In this document: positions 3,084 through 29,559 of the stretch, piece after piece
Layout: the number at the start of each line of letters is the position of its first letter
How positions within the stretch are numbered: the stretch's first letter is position 1
Assembly: GCA_041666445.1 (NCBI GenBank)
Contig: JBAYGV010000001.1
Span: 1 to 31,228, forward strand
Reading direction: 5' to 3'
Length of the DNA stretch: 31,228 nucleotides
DNA from: Candidatus Micrarchaeia archaeon
Lineage (GTDB): Archaea > Micrarchaeota > Micrarchaeia > Anstonellales > Bilamarchaeaceae
The notes under the pieces: generated by a model
Told to the model about the DNA's origin: nothing
The model's database searches: none
Seen by the model: the letters and a program-made list of their open reading frames with translations, nothing else
Translations under genes and position numbers: made by a program

Positions 3084-3287
3084 TTACTCTTTTTTCCTGT
3101 GAGTAATTGCAAGCGTTGCAATAGCGCCAATGGCGGCACCAACCGCAGCGGCAACTAGAACTGCTTTTTCAGGCTCTTCCTTGATGTGAGCATCCATAGA
3201 TTTCTTGACATGAGCGAATTTCTTTTCCGCTTCTGCAATTGCCTTTCTTGCCTTTACTTCTGCTTCTTTCTTTAAGTTTTTTGCCAT
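3084..3287 (-). CDS. DUF883 / ElaB-YqjD-like tail-anchored membrane protein
   Basis: K/E/A-rich helical N-terminus, then IKEEPEKAVLVAAAVGAAIGAI (the 'P..avliAagvG' tail-anchor signature of DUF883) and a basic C-terminus. Confidence 0.7.
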   Translation of the reverse strand: MAKNLKKEAEVKARKAIAEAEKKFAHVKKSMDAHIKEEPEKAVLVAAAVGAAIGAIATLAITHRKKE

Positions 3288-3355: not shown

Positions 3356-5260
3356 CTAAGCTATTGCCTCCTCAATCTTTTTCTCAAGAATCTTAAGGAA
3401 GCCCTGCCATAGTGACCCGTAATTCTGGAAATTTGAAATGAACGGGTTCAGCATGCATACCCTAAGGACGCGAACTTTGCCAACCCGGTTCCATTCCTTT
3501 TCCGGAATTCCAAGCCTTTTTACGAATTCTTTTGGCGCGTCACCGTAATCTTCCTTGCTCAGCTCGGTATTTGAAGTAATCCAGTCGTTTTTGTAAACCG
3601 GGCCTTCCACGTATGAGGATTCGGAATAAATTTTTGAGTTAAGCTCGTTCATATTCTCCAAATTAGCATTGCCTTTCTCATTGAACGCCATGCAAATTAT
3701 GTTGAAGTCGGGAGTCCAGACTAACGGCTGCACTAAGAATTCCTTGCCCTTGACCTTCAGGCTTTTTATTGATTCGAGCGAGCGGGTAAACATCTGCGCC
3801 CCCTCTATGCTTCTTCCGATTATTTCGCCATAGCCAGTTATGTTCAACGGAACCAGCCTGTGGCTTGCCCAAACTGCTGCTGCAGTTGCACCAGCTTTTG
3901 AGCCTTCCATTATGTATGAGCCAAGAAGAACCGGGGTGTTCTTTCCTGATTCGAAAACATAGGCTGCAAAATAGGATATCAGATCCAGTATCCTGCGGTC
4001 CTTGATTGCAATTCCCCCCGCAGCATAGGGAATGTATCCCATCTTGTGTGGGTCAATGGTAATGGAATCTGCTGCCGGGATTGCCCTATAGGATTCGTAG
4101 ATTTCCTTTGCCGGATAGGAATGGTTCCCTACGAAAACCTTGTCCGAAAACAGGCGTTTTTTCAAAGTGCCGTATTCCATGAAACGGCTTTTTTCGTCGA
4201 GGAATAACGCCCTTGAATAGCCCCCATAGGCAGCATCAATGTGGAAATAGAATGAAACTCCTTTTTTCTGATAAGCGTCGCGCAGCTTTGCGATTTCGGC
4301 AATCCGGTCAATCGCTCCTTCTTCCGTAGTGCCCACCACCCCAACTACTGCAATTATTGGGATTTTCTTTGCTACGTGCCCGTCAATGATTTTTTTCAGG
4401 ACTCCGATGTCCATGCGAAAATGCTCATCTACCTGCACTTCTATAAAATTCTTGTTTCCTATGCCCAGGACATCGGCGGCCTTAACCCACGAATAATGCT
4501 TGGATTGCGGGACAATGACAACACCAAGTTTTCCTTCCCCGACTCCGGTTCCACGCACAGTTTCTTTCCTAACTGCATCAAAGCAGCCCGCCTTCTTGAC
4601 TTTCTCAATCAGGTCAAGCGCTTTCTGCGTTGGCATATTCATGAGCTGCCAATCGCTCATTCCTTTTACCAAAGACGGCTTGACTTTTTTTACTGCGGGC
4701 GGGAAAGATTTGAGATTCCTGGCCATCCAAAGCCCTTCGTAGTTGGCAATCGTCCCGTCGGTAGTGATGTGCCCCCAGGAATTTTTTGGGTCAAAACCGA
4801 GCATGGCTGAAAGGTCTTTCCCAACTTCAATTTCCATGGGCGCGGTTGCAGTTGACGCTTCATAGGCCACGTTGTTCGGATTGTAAAGAAGCGCTGCCAT
4901 GTAGGCCAGGTTTGCAACCATGAGCGTATCTGAATTCATATGGCCAAGATAGCGTGCTGAAAACCATGGCATGGAAGTTGCCTTGAGCTTTGATGAAAGT
5001 TCAGAAAGGACTTCAGATGTCCTGTCCAGGGTTTCCTGATATTTCTCGCTGCGCATTTCATGCATAGAGGATATTTCAGCATCTTCAGGATGAAAATCCC
5101 TGCGCCAGTGCATATGCTCTTCCATCAGGAAATTGAGCATGTTCTTGAAATATTCGCGGTTTTCCGATTTCGGACCTAAGAAAAGCGCCTTGACTTCAAC
5201 ATCTTTTGGATTAGCTTTTGCAACGCTAGGTTTTGCATTTTTCTTTTTTTCTCCGGCCAT
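3356..5260 (-). CDS. tdcA: Group II PLP-dependent decarboxylase, Enterococcus/Lactobacillus-type L-tyrosine decarboxylase
   Basis: 634 aa with ALFLGPKSEN, RYLGHMNSDTL, NNVAYEAS, WGHITTDGTIANYEGLWMARN, VPQSKHYSWVKAADVLGIG, HIDAAYGGY, SITIDPHKMGYIPY (PLP lysine) and YIMEGSKAGATAA. These motifs closely match the lactic-acid-bacterial TyrDC family. Confidence 0.85.
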   Translation of the reverse strand: MAGEKKKNAKPSVAKANPKDVEVKALFLGPKSENREYFKNMLNFLMEEHMHWRRDFHPEDAEISSMHEMRSEKYQETLDRTSEVLSELSSKLKATSMPWFSARYLGHMNSDTLMVANLAYMAALLYNPNNVAYEASTATAPMEIEVGKDLSAMLGFDPKNSWGHITTDGTIANYEGLWMARNLKSFPPAVKKVKPSLVKGMSDWQLMNMPTQKALDLIEKVKKAGCFDAVRKETVRGTGVGEGKLGVVIVPQSKHYSWVKAADVLGIGNKNFIEVQVDEHFRMDIGVLKKIIDGHVAKKIPIIAVVGVVGTTEEGAIDRIAEIAKLRDAYQKKGVSFYFHIDAAYGGYSRALFLDEKSRFMEYGTLKKRLFSDKVFVGNHSYPAKEIYESYRAIPAADSITIDPHKMGYIPYAAGGIAIKDRRILDLISYFAAYVFESGKNTPVLLGSYIMEGSKAGATAAAVWASHRLVPLNITGYGEIIGRSIEGAQMFTRSLESIKSLKVKGKEFLVQPLVWTPDFNIICMAFNEKGNANLENMNELNSKIYSESSYVEGPVYKNDWITSNTELSKEDYGDAPKEFVKRLGIPEKEWNRVGKVRVLRVCMLNPFISNFQNYGSLWQGFLKILEKKIEEAIA

Positions 5261-5264
5261 CCCA

Positions 5265-6731
5265 TCACCTTTTTCTTGGCTTAGCCTTGCTGGCCTCTGC
5301 CTTCGGTTTTACATCAGTCTCCCCACCCTGCTTCCACTCCGGCTTCTTGAAATGGTAAATAATAAGCGGAACGGCGACCACTGCCAAAGTCCCAATCAGC
5401 ATGAACGCAACATAGGTGTTTGCGCTGCTTCCTTCAGAAATCTGGCTCGGGGGCGTGAGCGCCAGTAAGAAAAGGAATATCATTGAAAGGAAACCAAATC
5501 CTGCGACTAGCCACATTCCCAATTTGCCGCCAGGGATTGAAAATGGCCTTGGCACTTTTGGCTGGGAATACCTCAGGCGGATGGCAGCCGCATACATCAG
5601 GAGGTACATTACGATATAGACTGCAGTAGTCAATGCAAAAAGCATCCAGAACGAACTGTTGACTCCGCCAGGAAGCAGGACGTAGACTGCCCCCCAAAAA
5701 GTTATCATGATTGCCTGCAGTATGAGCATGTTGGTAGGAATTCCATTTTCGTTTTTCTTCTGGAGAATTCTTGGAAGATTCCCTTCGCGCGCAGTCATGA
5801 ATAAACCGCGAACAGGCCCAAGAATCCATGTGGACACCTGCCCCATTGCGCCAATAACTATAAGGAGTGCGAATATCCCTACGAGCCATGAGAGCCCCAT
5901 GCTCTGGAAAATCACCTGAAAGGTCTGCATTATGCCTGCAAGAAGATTAAGGTTTCCAATCGGAACAATCATCGCAACTAATAGGGCGCCGATTACCCCG
6001 ACCACGGTGGTTACAATTCCTACAATCAGTATGCCAAGCGGATAGTTTTTCTGCACATCCTTAATTTCGTTCGCGTGGGTTGCAGTCATTTCAATTCCAA
6101 TGAAAACAAATACGAACGTAACCAGGAGAACGAGATTGGACATGGACGATAGGTCGGGAATAAGGTCTGCTATTGTCGGATTCAACGTAAGCTGGACTGG
6201 ATTTCCTGAAAGAACGTACCATAATCCGCCCAGTATGAGAACGGCTGCCGGAATGAAAGTTCCAATCACTACTGAAATTGAGCTTATCTTGGAATAGGTT
6301 TTCATGCCTTTGAAGTTCAGGAGTGTAAAGCCCCACCAAATGACAACGATTATGAGAAACTCGAACAGCTTGTTGTCTGCAAGCGATGGGTCAAAAAGAT
6401 AGGCAAGTGTTGCTGCGATAAAAGTAAGGATGCTGATGAAGCCGATGGTCATCTGGAACCATTGTAGCCAGACGGCAGTAAAGCCCCATTTTTGGCCGAA
6501 TGCATTTTTGACCCAGGTATAAACCCCGCCTTCCTTGGGCCAGCCGGTTGCCAGTTCCGCAGAAACAAGGGACGCGGGAATAAGATATAGTATTACTGCA
6601 AGAAGGCAGAATGCAATTGACTGCCAGCCAACTACGCCCTGCGTAGGGAAAGTCCTGATGCTCATAAGAGCAGCAAAAGTCAGCAGGACAAAAGCAAGAA
6701 GACTAAGCTTAAACACATTTTTAGATGCCAT
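5265..6731 (-). CDS. APC-superfamily amino acid/amine antiporter (GadC/TyrP-like)
   Basis: About 12 TM segments; AELATGWPKEGGVYTWVKNAFG; GIEMTATHA; WILGPVRGL. Only 4 nt upstream of the decarboxylase start. Confidence 0.9.
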   Translation of the reverse strand: MASKNVFKLSLLAFVLLTFAALMSIRTFPTQGVVGWQSIAFCLLAVILYLIPASLVSAELATGWPKEGGVYTWVKNAFGQKWGFTAVWLQWFQMTIGFISILTFIAATLAYLFDPSLADNKLFEFLIIVVIWWGFTLLNFKGMKTYSKISSISVVIGTFIPAAVLILGGLWYVLSGNPVQLTLNPTIADLIPDLSSMSNLVLLVTFVFVFIGIEMTATHANEIKDVQKNYPLGILIVGIVTTVVGVIGALLVAMIVPIGNLNLLAGIMQTFQVIFQSMGLSWLVGIFALLIVIGAMGQVSTWILGPVRGLFMTAREGNLPRILQKKNENGIPTNMLILQAIMITFWGAVYVLLPGGVNSSFWMLFALTTAVYIVMYLLMYAAAIRLRYSQPKVPRPFSIPGGKLGMWLVAGFGFLSMIFLFLLALTPPSQISEGSSANTYVAFMLIGTLAVVAVPLIIYHFKKPEWKQGGETDVKPKAEASKAKPRKR

Positions 6732-6802: not shown

Positions 6803-6820
6803 AAATAGTAACTATTTAAA
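6803..6820. promoter_or_regulatory. 15-bp palindrome overlapping a TATA-like box in the divergent permease/YdeI promoter region
   Basis: AAATAGT-A-ACTATTT at 6803-6817 overlaps TATTTAAA at 6813-6820. Confidence 0.45.
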
Positions 6821-6843
6821 TTGTCGTTTTGCCTTTTAAAAGC

Positions 6844-7413
6844 ATGGAAATCACCAAGACGCTTTATGTGAAAAACAGAACCGAATGGCGGAATTGGCTT
6901 TCCAAACACCAGGATGGAAAGGAAACGGAAATCTGGCTCGTTTATTATCGAAAATCATCGGGAAAGCCCAGAATTCCATATAATGATGCTGTTGAAGAGG
7001 CGTTGTGCTTTGGCTGGATAGACAGCATCGTAAAAAGGATTGACGATGAAAAATTTGCGCAGAGGTTCAGCCCCAGAAGGAAAACCAGCATACTGTCAAG
7101 AATGAACATAGAACGGGTCAAAAAATTAATTGAAGAAAAAAGAATGACAAAACGGGGGCTGGATGCCATAGCCCATAGGTTCGACCCGAATGAAAAGGAC
7201 GACTTTAAGATTGCCAAGGACATTCTTGCTGAAATAAAAAAGGACAAACTGGCTTGGAAACACTTCCAACAGTTTCCGGAACGATACAAGCGGATAAGGA
7301 TAAGCTATGTTGAAGAAATCCGAAATTATAGCAGGGAGCAGTTCAAACGGAGATTGCGGAACTTCATAAAAAATACTGCAAAAAACAAGAGATTCGGGAT
7401 GGTTAGGGAATAA
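6844..7413 (+). CDS. YdeI/OmpD-associated family protein
   Basis: ATG at 6844 (MEITKTLYVKNRTEWRNWL), EIWLVYYRK, YNDAVEEALCFGWIDS, QRFSPRR, and a C-terminal OmdA-like segment. Confidence 0.9.
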   Translation: MEITKTLYVKNRTEWRNWLSKHQDGKETEIWLVYYRKSSGKPRIPYNDAVEEALCFGWIDSIVKRIDDEKFAQRFSPRRKTSILSRMNIERVKKLIEEKRMTKRGLDAIAHRFDPNEKDDFKIAKDILAEIKKDKLAWKHFQQFPERYKRIRISYVEEIRNYSREQFKRRLRNFIKNTAKNKRFGMVRE

Positions 7414-18259: not shown

Positions 18260-18798
18260 ATGGCAAAAAAAGTTTCCCTTGATGGATTTAGTAAACTAAG
18301 CGGCTGGTTCCTGGCATTAGGTATCCTGTTTGTGATTTTTGGATTTACCCTTATGCTCTCGCCAGTCATGGGAACAATAACGGTTGACCTATTGTTCGGA
18401 GTATTGCTGCTTGTGCTTGGTGTCTCTGAAATAGTATTTGCTTCATGGCGCGCAAGTGGACCGGATTCCTGTTCGTATTATTGAGCGGCATCCTGTCATT
18501 GATAATCGCAGCAGTGCTTATCTTCAACCCGCTAAAGGGTGCGATTGCGCTTACCCTGTTGCTGGGCGCATTCCTCTTCGTGCAGGGCTTGATAAAGTGC
18601 GCACGCTCGATGAAGCTGAAGCCAAATTACCATTGGGAATGGCTGCTTTTCGACGGATTGCTTTCCATATTATTGGGCATATTGATTATGGGGGCATGGC
18701 CAAGCGACTCAGTCTGGGTGCTCGGGCTGCTGTTCGGAATTGACTTGCTATTCGGCGGGCTTTCAATGATAATGATCTCGCAGATGGTAAAGAAGTAG
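18260..18798 (+). pseudogene. hdeD: HdeD/DUF308 acid-resistance membrane protein, split by an apparent single-base deletion near 18442
   Basis: ORF 18260-18484 (WFLALGILFVIFG...P...LLFGVLLLVLGVSEI) and ORF 18445-18798 (LSGILSLIIAAVLIFNP...GAFLFVQG...WLLFDGLLSILLG...WPSDSVWVLGLLFGIDLLFGG) are the two halves of one HdeD. Adding one T (GCT TTC ATG) fuses them. Confidence 0.85.
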
Positions 18799-19713: not shown

Positions 19714-22134
19714 ATGGTTGCCAACAAGAATGCTGCTGATTTTAAGGGAATTTCAATCCAGGAGACCATGAAGGAGCTGGAAACAAGCGAGAAAGGACTG
19801 AATGAAACCGAAGTGCAAAACCGAATCAAGGAATTTGGATTCAACGAAATAATACCAAAGGAAAAGAGCAAGCTGGAGGATTTCCTATCTAGGTTTTGGG
19901 GGCCTATTCCATGGCTTCTTGAAATTGCAGCTTTGCTCTCATGCATGGTCGGGGAAGTATTTGACGGCCTGCTTATTTTCATCCTATTGCTTATGAATAC
20001 CGTAATCGGGTTTGTTGAAGAGCAAAAATCCCACAAGGCACTCGAACTTTTGAAAAAGAAGATGAAGATAAAGGCGCAGGTTTTGCGGGACGGGAAATGG
20101 GTTACTAAAGAGTCGCGGGATTTGGTTCCGGGAGACGTTATTCTTGTAGGGCTAGGCGACCTTGTCCCTGCGGACGTAAAAATAATCAGCGGGAATGTTT
20201 CCGCAGATCAATCTGCATTGAGCGGGGAATCGCTTCCAGTAAACCTGAAAGAAGGCGACCTGACCTATAACGGCGCAATAATAAAACGCGGGGAAGCAAG
20301 GTGCGTTGTAGTAGGAACTGGGAAAAACACTTATTTTGGAAAAACAGTTGAGCTAGTAAACATTGCAAAGCCGAAATCCAGGCAGCAGGCAGTAATGCTC
20401 GACATCTGCAAATACATGATATACCTTGGCGCGATAGTCTACATAATAGTCTTATGGCACGGCATAAACATACACGCGGGAATGCTGACTCTAATGACGT
20501 TTGCAGTCCTTTTCATAGGCGGCGGAGTGCCAGCAGCCCTGCCAGTCATGTTTACCGTATCCCAGGCGACTGGCGCGGGAGAGCTGGCTGAAAAAGGGAT
20601 ACTGGTCACCAGGCTGGACTCGATAGAAAACGCAGCTTCCGTAGAGGTATTGTGCTTAGACAAGACAGGAACGATAACCAAAAATGAACTGGAAGTGAGT
20701 GAAATAATTCCATTTGGAAAATTCAGGAATGAAGATGTTGCGCTTTATGCAGGACTAGCTTCTTCAGAAGGAAGCAAGGATGCGATAGATGCGACTGTGC
20801 TCGGGCACGCAAAGAATGTAATTGGCGACAGGCTAAAGCAATACAAGCAAGTTTCATTCGTTCCGTTCGAGCCTGCAACAAAAAGGACAGAAGCAATTAT
20901 TGAACTGAAGGGAAAGAAAATCAAAGTAATGAAAGGGGCGCCGCAGGTCCTTATTGCTCTTTGCAAAAAAACAGACAAGAAAACGATTGCACAGGCAAAC
21001 AAGCAGATAGATGGCCTTTCGCTTAAAGGGTGCAGGGCGCTTGCAGTTGCAAAATCAATCGATGCGAAAATGAATGAATTTGAACTTGTTGGGATTCTGG
21101 CACTGGCAGACCCGATAAGGCCGGATACTTCAGCAATGATAAACGACATGAGAAACGCGGGTATCCGTCCGATGATGATAACTGGGGACAATATCGCAGT
21201 TGCAAAGGAAATTGCAAAACAAGCAAATATAGGAAACGCAATTGCAAGGATAAGCGAGCTCAAGGCAATGGGCGAAGAAAGGATGAAGGAAGCGATAGAA
21301 AAATTGAATGGCATTGCGGAAATTTACCCTGAAGACAAATTTTCTATAGTGAAATTATGGCAGTCCCGAGGAATGATGGTTGGGATGACAGGCGATGGAG
21401 TAAATGATGCTCCGGCATTGAAGCAAGCGGAAATGGGAGTTGCAGTCAGCAATTCTACCGATGTCGCAAAAGCGGCCGCAAGCATTGTGCTTACCGAACC
21501 CGGGACAAGGCTGATAATAGATGCAGTGAAAACAAGCAGGCAGATTTACCAGAGGATGCTAACTTGGGCAATAAACAAAATAACTAAATCAATCCAGTTC
21601 TTAGGTATAACGACCATAGGGTTCTTCTGGTTTGAAAGCATAGTAATTTCGATAACCGGCCTGATGCTCATAGTGTTCGTGAATGATTTCCTTACGCTTG
21701 CGCTTGCAAAGGATAACGCAACATCGACTTCCAACCCTAACAAGTGGAATGTGAAGAACCTTTCCATCGCATCCGGCTTCCTTGGCGTGCTATTCGTGCT
21801 TGAAGGAGTTGTGCTCATGTGGATTGGAAGGGATTATTTCCACCTTACGCTGGAGGGAATCCAAACCTTAATTCTTTTGCTATTCGCATATACGACGATG
21901 TTCAGGATACTAATAGTACGGGAAAGGGGCCACTGCTGGGATTCAATGCCAAGCAAGACAGTGATTTTGACCACTGTAATTACGGTGGTTTTCTTCACAT
22001 GGATTTCTATAGATGGGGTGTTATTGAAAGGGCTGCCAGCGAACATGGTGCTGTTTGCGCTTGGATTCTGCGCTGTTGCAACGTTCCTGATAGACATTCC
22101 GAAATATTATGTTTTCAGGAGATTGGGGCTGTAG
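19714..22134 (+). CDS. Plasma-membrane-type proton-efflux P-type ATPase (P3A)
   Basis: DQSALSGESLPV, GVPAALP, CLDKTGTIT, KGAPQ, DPIRPD, TGDN, GMTGDGVNDAPALK, and TM6 FVNDFLTLALAKDN carrying the protonatable Asp of P3A pumps. Confidence 0.92.
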   Translation: MVANKNAADFKGISIQETMKELETSEKGLNETEVQNRIKEFGFNEIIPKEKSKLEDFLSRFWGPIPWLLEIAALLSCMVGEVFDGLLIFILLLMNTVIGFVEEQKSHKALELLKKKMKIKAQVLRDGKWVTKESRDLVPGDVILVGLGDLVPADVKIISGNVSADQSALSGESLPVNLKEGDLTYNGAIIKRGEARCVVVGTGKNTYFGKTVELVNIAKPKSRQQAVMLDICKYMIYLGAIVYIIVLWHGINIHAGMLTLMTFAVLFIGGGVPAALPVMFTVSQATGAGELAEKGILVTRLDSIENAASVEVLCLDKTGTITKNELEVSEIIPFGKFRNEDVALYAGLASSEGSKDAIDATVLGHAKNVIGDRLKQYKQVSFVPFEPATKRTEAIIELKGKKIKVMKGAPQVLIALCKKTDKKTIAQANKQIDGLSLKGCRALAVAKSIDAKMNEFELVGILALADPIRPDTSAMINDMRNAGIRPMMITGDNIAVAKEIAKQANIGNAIARISELKAMGEERMKEAIEKLNGIAEIYPEDKFSIVKLWQSRGMMVGMTGDGVNDAPALKQAEMGVAVSNSTDVAKAAASIVLTEPGTRLIIDAVKTSRQIYQRMLTWAINKITKSIQFLGITTIGFFWFESIVISITGLMLIVFVNDFLTLALAKDNATSTSNPNKWNVKNLSIASGFLGVLFVLEGVVLMWIGRDYFHLTLEGIQTLILLLFAYTTMFRILIVRERGHCWDSMPSKTVILTTVITVVFFTWISIDGVLLKGLPANMVLFALGFCAVATFLIDIPKYYVFRRLGL

Positions 22135-22150: not shown

Positions 22151-23554
22151 TCAGCGATTTGCTGGAACCCAGTTCTTCCTGAATTTATATATCGCCAGCG
22201 GCAGCCCTCCAATCAGCAAAATTGAAACGAAGAGAACGGCTTCATAGGCAAAAACCATTTCCTTCGGGAGCCCGGCTGGCGGGAAAAATCCCACAATGAA
22301 GCCTGCAAGGGTTGAAACAAACCCGACCCCGGCCACAAGCCAAACACCTAGCTTGCCACCGGGAATTGAAAACGCCCGCTTGGCATTTGGCTGGGAGTAG
22401 CGCAGTTTTATCGCTGCTGCAAAAAGAAGCAAATACATGATGAGGTAAAGGTGGGTATAAAGGTCGGTAAGGAACCAGTAGAAGAGCTCGGTTGACCTGA
22501 AGACAAGGAATAGGAGGGCAACCAACGTAACTGCAATTCCCTGGACAAAAAGGATATTTGACTGCACCCCATTCTCATTCTGGTAGCTGAAAAACTTCGG
22601 AAGATTCCCGTTTTTTGCTGCAATCAACAGCCCCTTGCTCGGGCCGGAAATCCATGAAACAACCTGCCCGACAAGCCCAAGGCAAATCATTGATGCGATT
22701 ACTGGAACAAGCCCAGTCCTGCTAAACGCAGAGAGAAACCCTTTTGCGGCCTCCATCAATCCAGTCATCAGGTTAAGCTGGGAAGAAGGGACAAGAATTG
22801 CAATTGAAAGCGTGCCAAGCGAAAAGAATACAAATGCCAAAATCGCGGAGATAAATATTGCTTTCGGATAATCCTTTGCCGGATTCCTAAGGTTCATTGC
22901 ACGCACGGCATGTACTTCCATGCCTGAATAGGAAGAAAAGACACCGATTGCAAATGCAATGCTGCCAATGCCAGTAAACGTTGGGATTATGGCGGACAGG
23001 TCCAAACTGGCATAGGACGGCTGGCCAAGCCTAAGCCAGTCAAGGGCAAAGAAGATGACTAAGAATGCTGGGAGCATTACCCCGACAACAGTGAGGACGG
23101 ATGTCAAATTCTTGGCAAGTTCAAAGCCCCGCAGGTTCACAACTGTCGCAATCCAATAGACCGAAATTATTACGGTCGGAATAAACCACGGGCTGCTGGT
23201 AATAGACGGGCTTACGAATATGAATGAAAAGGTTGCTGCAAAAAATGAAAGCGCAATGGGATACCATAGTATGTTTGGCGCCCATTGGAGCCACACAGTA
23301 AGGAAGCCGAATTTTTCCCCGAACGCTTCCTTTGCCCACCCATATACCCCGCCGCTTTTAGGCCAGCCGGTGGCAAGCTCTGCGCAAACCAAAGAGATAG
23401 GGATAAGAAAACAAACGGCTGCGATGGCGTAGAAGAATATGGATGAAATCCCGTAGCTTGCAAGCAGCGGGAGCCCCCTAAGACCAACGACTACTGAAAA
23501 ATTGAGCAGGACAAGCGAAAGAACGCCCAGTTCCTTGATTTTTTTTGGGACCAT
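22151..23554 (-). CDS. APC-superfamily amino acid permease (GadC-like), paralogue of 5265-6731
   Basis: GLRGLP, AELATGWPKSGGVYGWAKEAFG, GMEVHAV, WISGPSKGL, KLRYSQP...FSIPGGKLG. Confidence 0.9.
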   Translation of the reverse strand: MVPKKIKELGVLSLVLLNFSVVVGLRGLPLLASYGISSIFFYAIAAVCFLIPISLVCAELATGWPKSGGVYGWAKEAFGEKFGFLTVWLQWAPNILWYPIALSFFAATFSFIFVSPSITSSPWFIPTVIISVYWIATVVNLRGFELAKNLTSVLTVVGVMLPAFLVIFFALDWLRLGQPSYASLDLSAIIPTFTGIGSIAFAIGVFSSYSGMEVHAVRAMNLRNPAKDYPKAIFISAILAFVFFSLGTLSIAILVPSSQLNLMTGLMEAAKGFLSAFSRTGLVPVIASMICLGLVGQVVSWISGPSKGLLIAAKNGNLPKFFSYQNENGVQSNILFVQGIAVTLVALLFLVFRSTELFYWFLTDLYTHLYLIMYLLLFAAAIKLRYSQPNAKRAFSIPGGKLGVWLVAGVGFVSTLAGFIVGFFPPAGLPKEMVFAYEAVLFVSILLIGGLPLAIYKFRKNWVPANR

Positions 23555-28345: not shown

Positions 28346-28975
28346 TTACGGTTTTGCTGCACAAGTTCCGCCAGCGCATTTATCATTTTTGCAGGTTTCA
28401 AGCCTCTCCTCAACCTTTTTCCAGTTTATAGCCTTGAAAAACGCATTTATATAATCCGCCCGCTTCAGCCCGTAATCCAGCATGAACGCATGCTCGAAAA
28501 CATCCATAACTAGCAGCACCCTAGTTCCGACCAAATTGCCAACATCATGCTCGTTTATCCATACGTTGAACAGCCTGTCTCCGCATTTATCGTAGCATAA
28601 GACTGCCCATCCAATCCCGCGCATTGCGCCAGTTGCCCGGAAATCCTTTTCCCAGTTCTCAAAGGAGCCGAATTCCAAGGATATTTTTTTCATGAGCTCA
28701 CCATCGCCAGCTAACAGTGTTCCGCCCTTAGCCATGTTCTTGAAGTACATCCTGTGGAGCTTCATTCCGTTGAATTCCCAGCCGAATCTTCTCTTTAGCT
28801 CTGCATATTCAGGGGTTGCTGTTTTACTTTCCTTAACCATTGCCAATAGCAAGTCGGAAAGCTTGTTTACATTCGCAACATAGCCTTGATACAATGTAAA
28901 ATGGTTCTTCAGCAGCTGATCGCTGAACCCTTCTGTTCCCAACAAATTATCAAAATTTTGCGCTTCGTATGCCAT
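28346..28975 (-). CDS. sod: Fe/Mn superoxide dismutase
   Basis: Start MAYEAQ. Four metal ligands in NHFTLY, MKLHRMYF and MDVFEHAF; also FGSFENW and GIGWAVL. Confidence 0.92.
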   Translation of the reverse strand: MAYEAQNFDNLLGTEGFSDQLLKNHFTLYQGYVANVNKLSDLLLAMVKESKTATPEYAELKRRFGWEFNGMKLHRMYFKNMAKGGTLLAGDGELMKKISLEFGSFENWEKDFRATGAMRGIGWAVLCYDKCGDRLFNVWINEHDVGNLVGTRVLLVMDVFEHAFMLDYGLKRADYINAFFKAINWKKVEERLETCKNDKCAGGTCAAKP

Positions 28976-28995
28976 ATGTTTCACCTCAGTAGTAG

Positions 28996-29559
28996 TTATA
29001 TTTTTCCAACCAAATCCAAGCTTGGCGCCAAAGTTGCCTTTCCCGGCTCCCAGCTTGCAGGGCAAACTTGACCCGGATGCTCACGTACGAATTTTGCCGC
29101 CTTTAGCTTTCGCAATATTTCCTTTGCGCTCCTTCCAATGCTATTGTCATGAATTTCCATGCATTTCAAAACACCGTCCGGGTCTATTATGAATGTTGCA
29201 CGCAGCGATAAACCTTCGTTTTCGATGTATGTCCCGAATTCCCTGCACATCTTTCCCGTAGGGTCTGCAAGCATGGGAAATTTGATTTTTTTTATTGCCG
29301 GGGACGCATCATGCCAAGCCTTGTGCACGAAATAGGTATCTGTGCTTACGCTCATTATTTCCGCATCCTGTTTCTTGAATTCCTCGTAGTTATCAGCCAG
29401 CTCTTCCAGCTCGGTCGGGCATACAAACGTAAAATCCGCCGGATAAAACGCAAGGACCAGCCATTTTCCTTTCTGGCTTGACAGGTTTATTTTTGTATTT
29501 TTGCCGGAATAAAAAGCATCCAGTTCCATGTCTGCTATTTTTTCCCCTATTCTTATCAT
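28996..29559 (-). CDS. ahpC: Typical 2-Cys peroxiredoxin (AhpC)
   Basis: FYPADFTFVCPTE (peroxidatic Cys), GRSAKEILR and QVCPASW (resolving Cys). Confidence 0.95.
   Translation of the reverse strand: MIRIGEKIADMELDAFYSGKNTKINLSSQKGKWLVLAFYPADFTFVCPTELEELADNYEEFKKQDAEIMSVSTDTYFVHKAWHDASPAIKKIKFPMLADPTGKMCREFGTYIENEGLSLRATFIIDPDGVLKCMEIHDNSIGRSAKEILRKLKAAKFVREHPGQVCPASWEPGKATLAPSLDLVGKI

Follow-up and report, generated by a model that had tools for sequence, protein, structure and literature searches.

The 31,228-nucleotide stretch of DNA analysed here (the window) is one whole contig, JBAYGV010000001.1, of a Candidatus Micrarchaeia archaeon assembly (GCA_041666445.1). It carries on its minus strand a gene for an APC-superfamily amino-acid permease (P0002), followed by a gene for a long group II decarboxylase dependent on pyridoxal 5'-phosphate (PLP; P0001). 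We consider that the pair is best explained, with a probability of roughly 0.65, as an aromatic amino-acid (tyrosine)/amine exchange and decarboxylation cassette that would contribute to pH homeostasis and to proton-motive force. Its substrate, antiport mode, electrogenicity and physiological role are those that we infer from homology, from the conserved pairing and from genomic context. Judged from identities and tree topologies, the two genes are a jointly inherited cassette, and it is of an environmental and archaeal type rather than that of lactic acid bacteria (LAB). An earlier note, made from the sequence alone, had described the pair as a LAB-type tyrosine decarboxylase and antiporter operon in a DPANN archaeon. 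The enzyme family, the adjoining permease and the DPANN host of that description hold. Its LAB-type framing does not: gene order and clade differ from those of LAB, the permease is not a TyrP orthologue, and tyrS and nhaC are missing.

The permease and decarboxylase genes

The permease open reading frame (ORF) comes first (5265–6731, minus strand, 488 aa) and the decarboxylase second (3356–5260, minus strand, 634 aa). Only 4 nt (5261–5264) separate them, the spacing that had been reported for the decarboxylase behind a GadC/TyrP-like permease. At the junction (5261–5270, minus strand), read directly from the sequence, the permease TGA stop (5265–5267) lies inside an AGGTGA Shine-Dalgarno-like motif (5265–5270), and a 4-nt spacer then leads to the decarboxylase ATG (5258–5260). 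This layout suggests that the two genes are co-transcribed as a single transcript and that their translation is coupled. A candidate archaeal TATA-like box, TTTAAATA, was read at 6813–6820 (minus strand), ~85 nt upstream of the permease ATG and within the 97-nt gap between the permease and a divergent YdeI/OmdA-like gene. GC content across the pair is 0.43–0.48, the same as in the remainder of the contig, with no GC anomaly.

P0001 was found to contain PF00282 and the family-specific C-terminal domain PF21391 (tyr_de_CO2_C; E 1e-41, model positions 2–140 of 141). Residues 20–630 align with positions 1–605 of 608 of the NCBIfam model TIGR03811 (tyr_de_CO2_Ent; E 1.4e-229) at 763.6 bits, a score below the equivalog cut-off of 905.3 that NCBI requires for the name 'tyrosine decarboxylase', so that family membership is certain and functional equivalence is not certified. 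The same cut-off was exceeded in none of 401 genomes sampled from the phylum. The model for MfnA, the short archaeal enzyme (TIGR03812), gave 128.8 bits against a cut-off of 299, and that for glutamate decarboxylase (GAD; TIGR01788) gave 30.2 bits. The closest solved structures are the tyrosine decarboxylases (TyrDCs) of Levilactobacillus brevis (5hsi) and Enterococcus faecalis (7cwx), each with E 3.5e-194. The next is Psilocybe PcncAAAD (6ebn, E 5.5e-90), an aromatic amino-acid decarboxylase by its PDB entry name. By these matches P0001 certainly belongs to the long Enterococcus/Lactobacillus TyrDC family and is not of the MfnA type, as the earlier note had concluded; its likeness to the solved TyrDC structures decides fold as well as family.

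Active-site residues of the L. brevis enzyme (LbTDC), for which roles in PLP binding and in the pocket are described (PMC4904194), were mapped onto P0001 through a HMMER alignment and an 81-sequence MAFFT alignment. This was the mapping that the earlier note had proposed, and all PLP and pocket residues were found to be kept or conservatively replaced, apart from S586C. The Schiff-base lysine K392 is kept as K406 of P0001, and the PLP anchors D328, A330, H241, T298, D389 and S440 correspond to D342, A344, H255, T312, D403 and S454. K406, D342, H255, T312, D403 and S454 are invariant in 80 family members, and A344 is nearly invariant (13-row alignment). The gating K240 is identical (K254 in P0001), and Y412, G310, Y345 and H405 of P0001 are likewise conserved. 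The mutagenesis-sensitive residues H98, M99, N100, S101, T103, G296, Y331, H391, Y395, P397 and Y398 (LbTDC numbering) are identical in P0001. Conservative changes were observed at E102D, S159T, A295V, S297T, V396I, M505I, V587M and M588L. Across the pocket positions that mutagenesis has shown to be important for tyrosine and DOPA (loops 98–103, 294–299 and 395–398, Y331, H391 and S586), the two proteins are thus identical bar E102D, A295V, S297T, V396I and S586C.

In LbTDC, S586 lies 2.9 Å from the docked tyrosine; S586A raises activity, and A, G and T alone retain >10% activity at this position (PMC4904194). The corresponding residue of P0001 is Cys602. We rejected S586C as a sign of altered specificity, because Cys is the family majority (70/80) and the plasmid-borne tdc of Tetragenococcus halophilus (pTDC-A) has it too; the E. 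faecalis residue is Ala. Measured against references that are 47–50% identical, the conserved pocket points to an aromatic amino acid as the substrate, with tyrosine the simplest candidate.

P0002 is a full-length APC transporter (PF13520, E 2.7e-69, residues 9–446). Its highest score was on the glutamine/γ-aminobutyric acid (GABA) GadC model TIGR03813 (452.9 bits, cut-off 650), followed by the glutamate/GABA GadC model NF053662 (423.3, cut-off 640), the TyrP model NF040513 (391.9, cut-off 630) and the GadC model TIGR00910 (356.1, cut-off 673.5). Escherichia coli GadC (4dji) aligns with P0002 over 459 residues (E 9.6e-85). The alignment stops at residue 471 of the 511 in the 4dji chain, after which P0002 continues with a 22-residue Lys-rich tail. 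Identity of P0002 to TyrP is 29–33% (E. faecalis, T. halophilus and Staphylococcus haemolyticus), and the permease tree sets these TyrP proteins apart in a clade of their own (support 100). In Micrarchaeota and Methanoregula loci, the permeases that precede the decarboxylase share 75–91% identity with P0002. On these scores and trees, P0002 is a member of the GadC/TyrP group that falls in neither characterised subfamily and is not a TyrP orthologue. We regard it as a putative precursor/product antiporter of an uncharacterised subfamily of the glutamate:GABA/TyrP group.

The window also holds an orphan GadC-like APC permease (22151–23554, minus strand, 467 aa) that is 37% identical to P0002. 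It scored 464 bits on the glutamate/GABA GadC model and 301 on the TyrP model, has no adjoining decarboxylase, and is convergent with a P3A ATPase gene considered below.

The same decarboxylase and exchanger logic could operate on a substrate other than tyrosine, either an aromatic or neutral amino acid (phenylalanine, tryptophan, methionine) or an acidic or amide one (glutamate, glutamine), the latter matching the GadC-like permease. The ranking of P0002 on the glutamine/GABA (453) and glutamate/GABA (423) GadC models ahead of TyrP (392), together with its ~30% identity to TyrP, speaks for such a substrate, as do the position of P0001 below the TyrDC equivalog cut-off and its second-shell differences from the LAB enzymes (E102D, S297T, M505I and V587M). 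We nevertheless think another substrate unlikely, since every first-shell pocket residue mutated in LbTDC is identical in P0001 and the GAD model reached just 30 bits. In both branches of the long family that have been characterised, the substrates are aromatic amino acids (PMC4904194; PcncAAAD by its PDB name), and the TyrP model gave 392 bits for P0002 vs 301 for the orphan GadC-like permease of the window. A tyrosine-like aromatic substrate remains the reading that we prefer.

Distribution, inheritance and host of the cassette

Distribution was evaluated by a pattern scan using one genome per species, in which a relative of the long enzyme was found in 571 species genomes across many bacterial and archaeal phyla. 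Beyond Micrarchaeota, identity to P0001 was 78% in a metagenome-assembled genome (MAG) labelled 'Pacearchaeota', 76% in Methanoregula, 70–73% in other Methanomicrobiales, 73% in one Dehalococcoidia MAG, 65% in Methanobacterium ferruginis and 59% in Methanobrevibacter. Many anaerobic bacterial phyla carry enzymes at 50–62% identity, and the LAB and Staphylococcus enzymes, obtained here from plasmids, are 47–50% identical. In ~60 of the 80 best loci, the gene immediately ahead of the enzyme gene, on the same strand, encodes a P0002-like permease, whose identity to P0002 declines in step with that of the enzyme. Several of these proteins are already annotated in databases as 'tyrosine decarboxylase' or 'pyridoxal-dependent decarboxylase', and our literature search found no description of the cassette in Micrarchaeota, DPANN or methanogens. 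The sole DPANN mentions found there concern MfnA in proviruses, and mfnA, speA and pdaD as acid-stress genes in a Parvarchaeales relative. The clade of permease-first cassettes is uncharacterised, and both of its parts are homologous to a textbook mechanism.

Our careful enzyme tree (IQ-TREE, 41 rows, LG+C20+F+G4 PMSF) was rooted on the Bacillota clade. A Mycetohabitans decarboxylase outgroup (32% identity), with a branch of 6.15 in the first quick tree, was dropped. The Micrarchaeota sequences, with the 'Pacearchaeota' row included, form a clade (100/99) that branches within a larger group shared with Methanomicrobiales and Methanobacteriaceae (99/97); a position inside Methanomicrobiales in particular is weakly supported (89/55, 72/76). 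Clostridium, LAB and Staphylococcus make up a separate Bacillota clade (100/100). When Micrarchaeota were forced to group with Bacillota, the tree was 142 log-likelihood units worse, and the grouping was rejected (p-AU, from the approximately unbiased test, 6e-96). The permease tree agrees with the enzyme tree and recovers both its 29-row clade (100) and the Micrarchaeota clade (100). This rejection, along with a permease that lies upstream and is only 29–33% identical to TyrP, is what overturned the LAB-type framing of the operon.

Within the phylum, the gene was found in 10/401 sampled genomes, with 5/76 in the family of the window, 3/30 in a sister family and a single divergent copy elsewhere. 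The patchy occurrence of the cassette and the nesting of its clade among methanogen and bacterial sequences make it likely that Micrarchaeota acquired it horizontally, probably once and with frequent loss thereafter; horizontal transfer had also been anticipated in the earlier note. The donor side was probably methanogen-like and not LAB, the cassette having come from or together with Methanomicrobiales-like archaea, with the direction of transfer not proven.

Several irregular loci were observed among the relatives. A permease-decarboxylase-permease arrangement occurs in L016, L017, L019 and L020 (Methanoregula, other Methanomicrobiales and one Dehalococcoidia MAG, a group including L021). 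Here a second, paralogous permease, 61–66% identical to P0002, lies directly downstream of the decarboxylase. In L021 the downstream copy alone is visible, and the contig ends upstream. Apparent permease-decarboxylase fusions in Methanoregula (L017, 1132 aa) and in a Verrucomicrobiae MAG (L024, 1123 aa) were rejected because in-frame stops lie between the genes, and no search was aimed at true fusions. The Dehalococcoidia MAG falls inside the Methanoregula clade in both gene trees (99–100 support), which suggests recent archaeon-to-bacterium transfer or a binning error.

In-frame stops were also found within the decarboxylase genes of three loci, at codon 441 in Ca. Burarchaeum australiense LFW-281_7 (L010), at codon 70 in Methanocorpusculum (L022), and three times near codons 518–537 in a mate from the family of the window (L015, genome G026). 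They could represent gene decay in some lineages or sequencing error. The codon-441 stop explains why the Burarchaeum gene is annotated as a 440-aa 'L-tyrosine/L-aspartate decarboxylase'.

The host assembly comprises 1.02 Mb in 174 contigs and is estimated to be 71% complete and 0.41% contaminated. An archaeal small-subunit rRNA lies on another contig of the same assembly. Its GTDB relatives are the family mate Candidatus Micrarchaeia archaeon SO_2017_LW4_49 (G005) and the order mate Ca. Anstonella LFW-35 (G252), the type of Ca. Anstonella stagnisolia (PMC8561730). The host is therefore the DPANN archaeon that had been suspected, specifically one of the Micrarchaeota.

Given that the window is an entire 31-kb contig of a 174-contig assembly, that no tRNA, rRNA or Rfam family was found in it, and that P0001 is 76% identical to Methanoregula proteins, the contig might have been mis-binned. 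It would then truly be methanogen or bacterial, and there would be no DPANN decarboxylase. However, at least 8 Micrarchaeota MAGs from independent assemblies carry the cassette at 83–89% identity, with contigs of 408, 857 and 921 kb among those that hold it, and the sequences fall into a single clade (100/99). YdeI-like, cupin and CAAX-protease neighbours are common to the window and to other Micrarchaeota MAGs (tblastn of window ORFs), an identical P0001 protein was assembled independently in two other datasets, and the estimated contamination of the host assembly is 0.41%. On account of the independent MAGs, the shared neighbours and the identical protein in two further assemblies, the cassette is native to the Micrarchaeota lineage and mis-binning is unlikely, to the point that we give it almost no weight.

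The YdeI/OmdA-like gene (6829–7413, plus strand), divergent from the permease, has counterparts of 54–61% identity next to the cassettes of Burarchaeum (L010) and of L018, the MAG labelled 'Pacearchaeota'. The L018 cassette clusters with Micrarchaeota, and the 'Pacearchaeota' label may therefore be wrong.

Proposed function and energetics

Under the reading that we prefer, the L-amino acid imported by P0002 would be aromatic, most probably tyrosine and perhaps phenylalanine or DOPA as well. P0001, as a PLP enzyme of the cytoplasm, would decarboxylate it with the consumption of one proton, and P0002 would export the monocationic amine in exchange for fresh substrate. The net effect of each turnover would be an alkalinised cytoplasm and the export of one positive charge. 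The outcome would be acid protection and a respiration-independent proton-motive force, usable by an A-type ATP synthase. The same logic is established in LAB. There, amino-acid decarboxylation takes up a proton from the cytoplasm and the electrogenic precursor/product antiport coupled to it moves net positive charge out of the cell, a cycle that provides acid protection and a proton-motive force of importance to organisms without a respiratory chain (PMC6351943).

The genomic context is consistent with such a role. A-type ATP synthase subunit A was found in the host genome and in 5/5 cassette-bearing relatives. No heme-copper oxidase (COX1) was found in 5 genomes, which is weak evidence with the host assembly 71% complete, and no cytochrome bd was found in the host genome at that same completeness. 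NuoL/M/N-like genes were observed only in Ca. Anstonella LFW-35, plus one weak match in G011. The fermentative lifestyle assumed in the earlier note is plausible, with the A-type ATP synthase present and no terminal oxidases found.

The window also encodes a P3A proton-efflux P-type ATPase of the plasma-membrane, fungal/plant type (19714–22134, plus strand, 806 aa), 14 kb from the cassette. It scored 729 bits on TIGR01647, above the equivalog cut-off of 615.5, which just 3/61 relatives exceed. Two other Micrarchaeota (G118 and G155) have orthologues with 53–55% identity on the contig that carries their cassette, 6–24 kb away from it. The nearby ATPase loosely supports a theme of pH and proton handling.

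DPANN archaea rely on imported building blocks, and this general dependence would suit a biosynthetic role for the pair, in which tyramine or another amine serves a cofactor, lipid, cell-surface modification or host exchange and the permease simply imports an amino acid beyond the synthetic capacity of the reduced genome. It would also suit this role that methanogens, in which the closest relatives occur, require tyramine to make methanofuran (PMC11365854), and that no MfnA-like second decarboxylase was found in the assembly (TIGR03811 search, single match). Micrarchaeota, however, are not methanogens, and methanogens use the short MfnA for methanofuran and carry the cassette in addition. A tight pair jointly inherited across many phyla is a hallmark of catabolic exchange systems, and no amine-consuming enzyme adjoins the pair. 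Presence in 10/401 genomes fits an accessory trait, not core biosynthesis. We therefore find a biosynthetic role quite improbable.

Several points weigh against an aromatic amino-acid/amine exchange cassette that builds proton-motive force. On the enzyme side, P0001 scores below the TIGR03811 equivalog cut-off and is just 47–50% identical to characterised TyrDCs, and our literature search found no characterised member of the methanogen/Micrarchaeota enzyme clade. On the transport side, P0002 falls under the TyrP and GadC cut-offs and scores slightly higher on the glutamine and glutamate/GABA models than on TyrP, and antiport by P0002 cannot be told from uniport or symport by sequence. In-frame stops in the decarboxylase of several relatives would make the trait dispensable. 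With the host genome 71% complete, missing respiratory genes are weak evidence.

DPANN archaea have minimal genomes. If exchange and decarboxylation do operate as proposed, a fermentative Micrarchaeon would gain membrane potential and acid protection without a respiratory chain, and tyramine-like biogenic amines of groundwater, peat and gut habitats would have an unrecognised source in Micrarchaeota and many methanogens. The label is also corrected, as the cassette is not a LAB import and belongs to a large, biochemically uncharacterised clade centred on methanogens and environmental anaerobes. Enzyme and transport assays of one member would annotate hundreds of genomes. The tight clustering with Methanomicrobiales is a testable lead on the gene-exchange partners of these symbionts. 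A broader picture, which we offer as speculative and rather doubtful, is that the cassette may be an exchange module in its own right, uncharacterised and very widespread. For Micrarchaeota that lack respiration it may be a genuine chemiosmotic energy source, feeding the A-type ATP synthase from amino acids released by the community or by a methanogen host, and it may have passed between Methanomicrobiales and their DPANN associates, in which case it would mark a route of host-symbiont gene flow.

Neighbouring features and comparison with known systems

Past the decarboxylase, after a gap of 68 nt and in the same orientation, a small ORF of 67 aa (3084–3287, minus strand) was read from the sequence. 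It has a Lys/Glu-rich N-terminus, one C-terminal hydrophobic helix and its own TTTATAAA motif upstream, and two independent assemblies also have it as a called gene. It had zero Pfam matches and zero tblastn matches in related loci. Further along, a DUF308 (HdeD-like) membrane protein (18260–18798, plus strand) is split into overlapping ORFs in different frames (18260–18484 and 18445–18798), which may reflect a frameshift or an assembly error. Adjacent genes for an Fe/Mn superoxide dismutase and a 1-Cys peroxiredoxin (AhpC/TSA) lie at 28346–29559 (minus strand); these are oxidative-stress genes in a genome where no terminal oxidase was found.

The tyrosine decarboxylation locus of LAB is arranged as tyrS-tdc-tyrP-nhaC, with the permease downstream of tdc (PMC6351943). 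In the reference loci that we evaluated, the permease and nhaC are likewise downstream of tdc; tyrS precedes tdc in E. faecalis and follows nhaC in the two plasmid loci. The cassette of the window resembles these LAB and staphylococcal loci (E. faecalis, Levilactobacillus brevis, T. halophilus pTDC-A) in its long ~620-aa type of TyrDC with PF00282, PF21391 and a TIGR03811 match, in its catalytic and pocket residues, in an adjoining APC permease of the GadC/TyrP group, and in the expected mechanism of proton-consuming decarboxylation with electrogenic exchange. It differs in an enzyme that is 47–50% identical and falls in a separate, strongly supported clade, in a permease that lies upstream and is 29–33% identical to TyrP, and in its archaeal host. 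No tyrS or nhaC was found among the annotated ORFs of the 31-kb window, nor in the 6-kb flanks of related loci.

The GadB-GadC systems of E. coli and Lactococcus share the logic of a PLP decarboxylase with an APC antiporter, and P0002 aligns with GadC (4dji). P0001, however, is not GadB-like (TIGR01788, 30 bits), and P0002 has the 22-residue Lys-rich tail instead of the GadC end. Archaeal MfnA, the tyrosine/aspartate decarboxylase of methanofuran and coenzyme A synthesis, has the group II PLP decarboxylase fold and occurs in archaeal hosts; it differs in its size of ~375–400 aa and in having neither PF21391 nor a partner permease.

The closest likeness is to the cassettes of methanogens and environmental anaerobes, represented by Methanoregula, Methanocorpusculum, Methanobacterium ferruginis, Methanobrevibacter, ANME-1, Dehalococcoidia, Margulisiibacteriota, Bacteroidales and others. 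Copies from Micrarchaeota make up a clade of their own, and several Methanomicrobiales add a downstream paralogous permease that the window does not have. Gene order, orientation and tight spacing are otherwise identical, the pocket residues are the same, including Cys602, and the enzymes (60–76% identical) and permeases (50–77% identical) give congruent trees.

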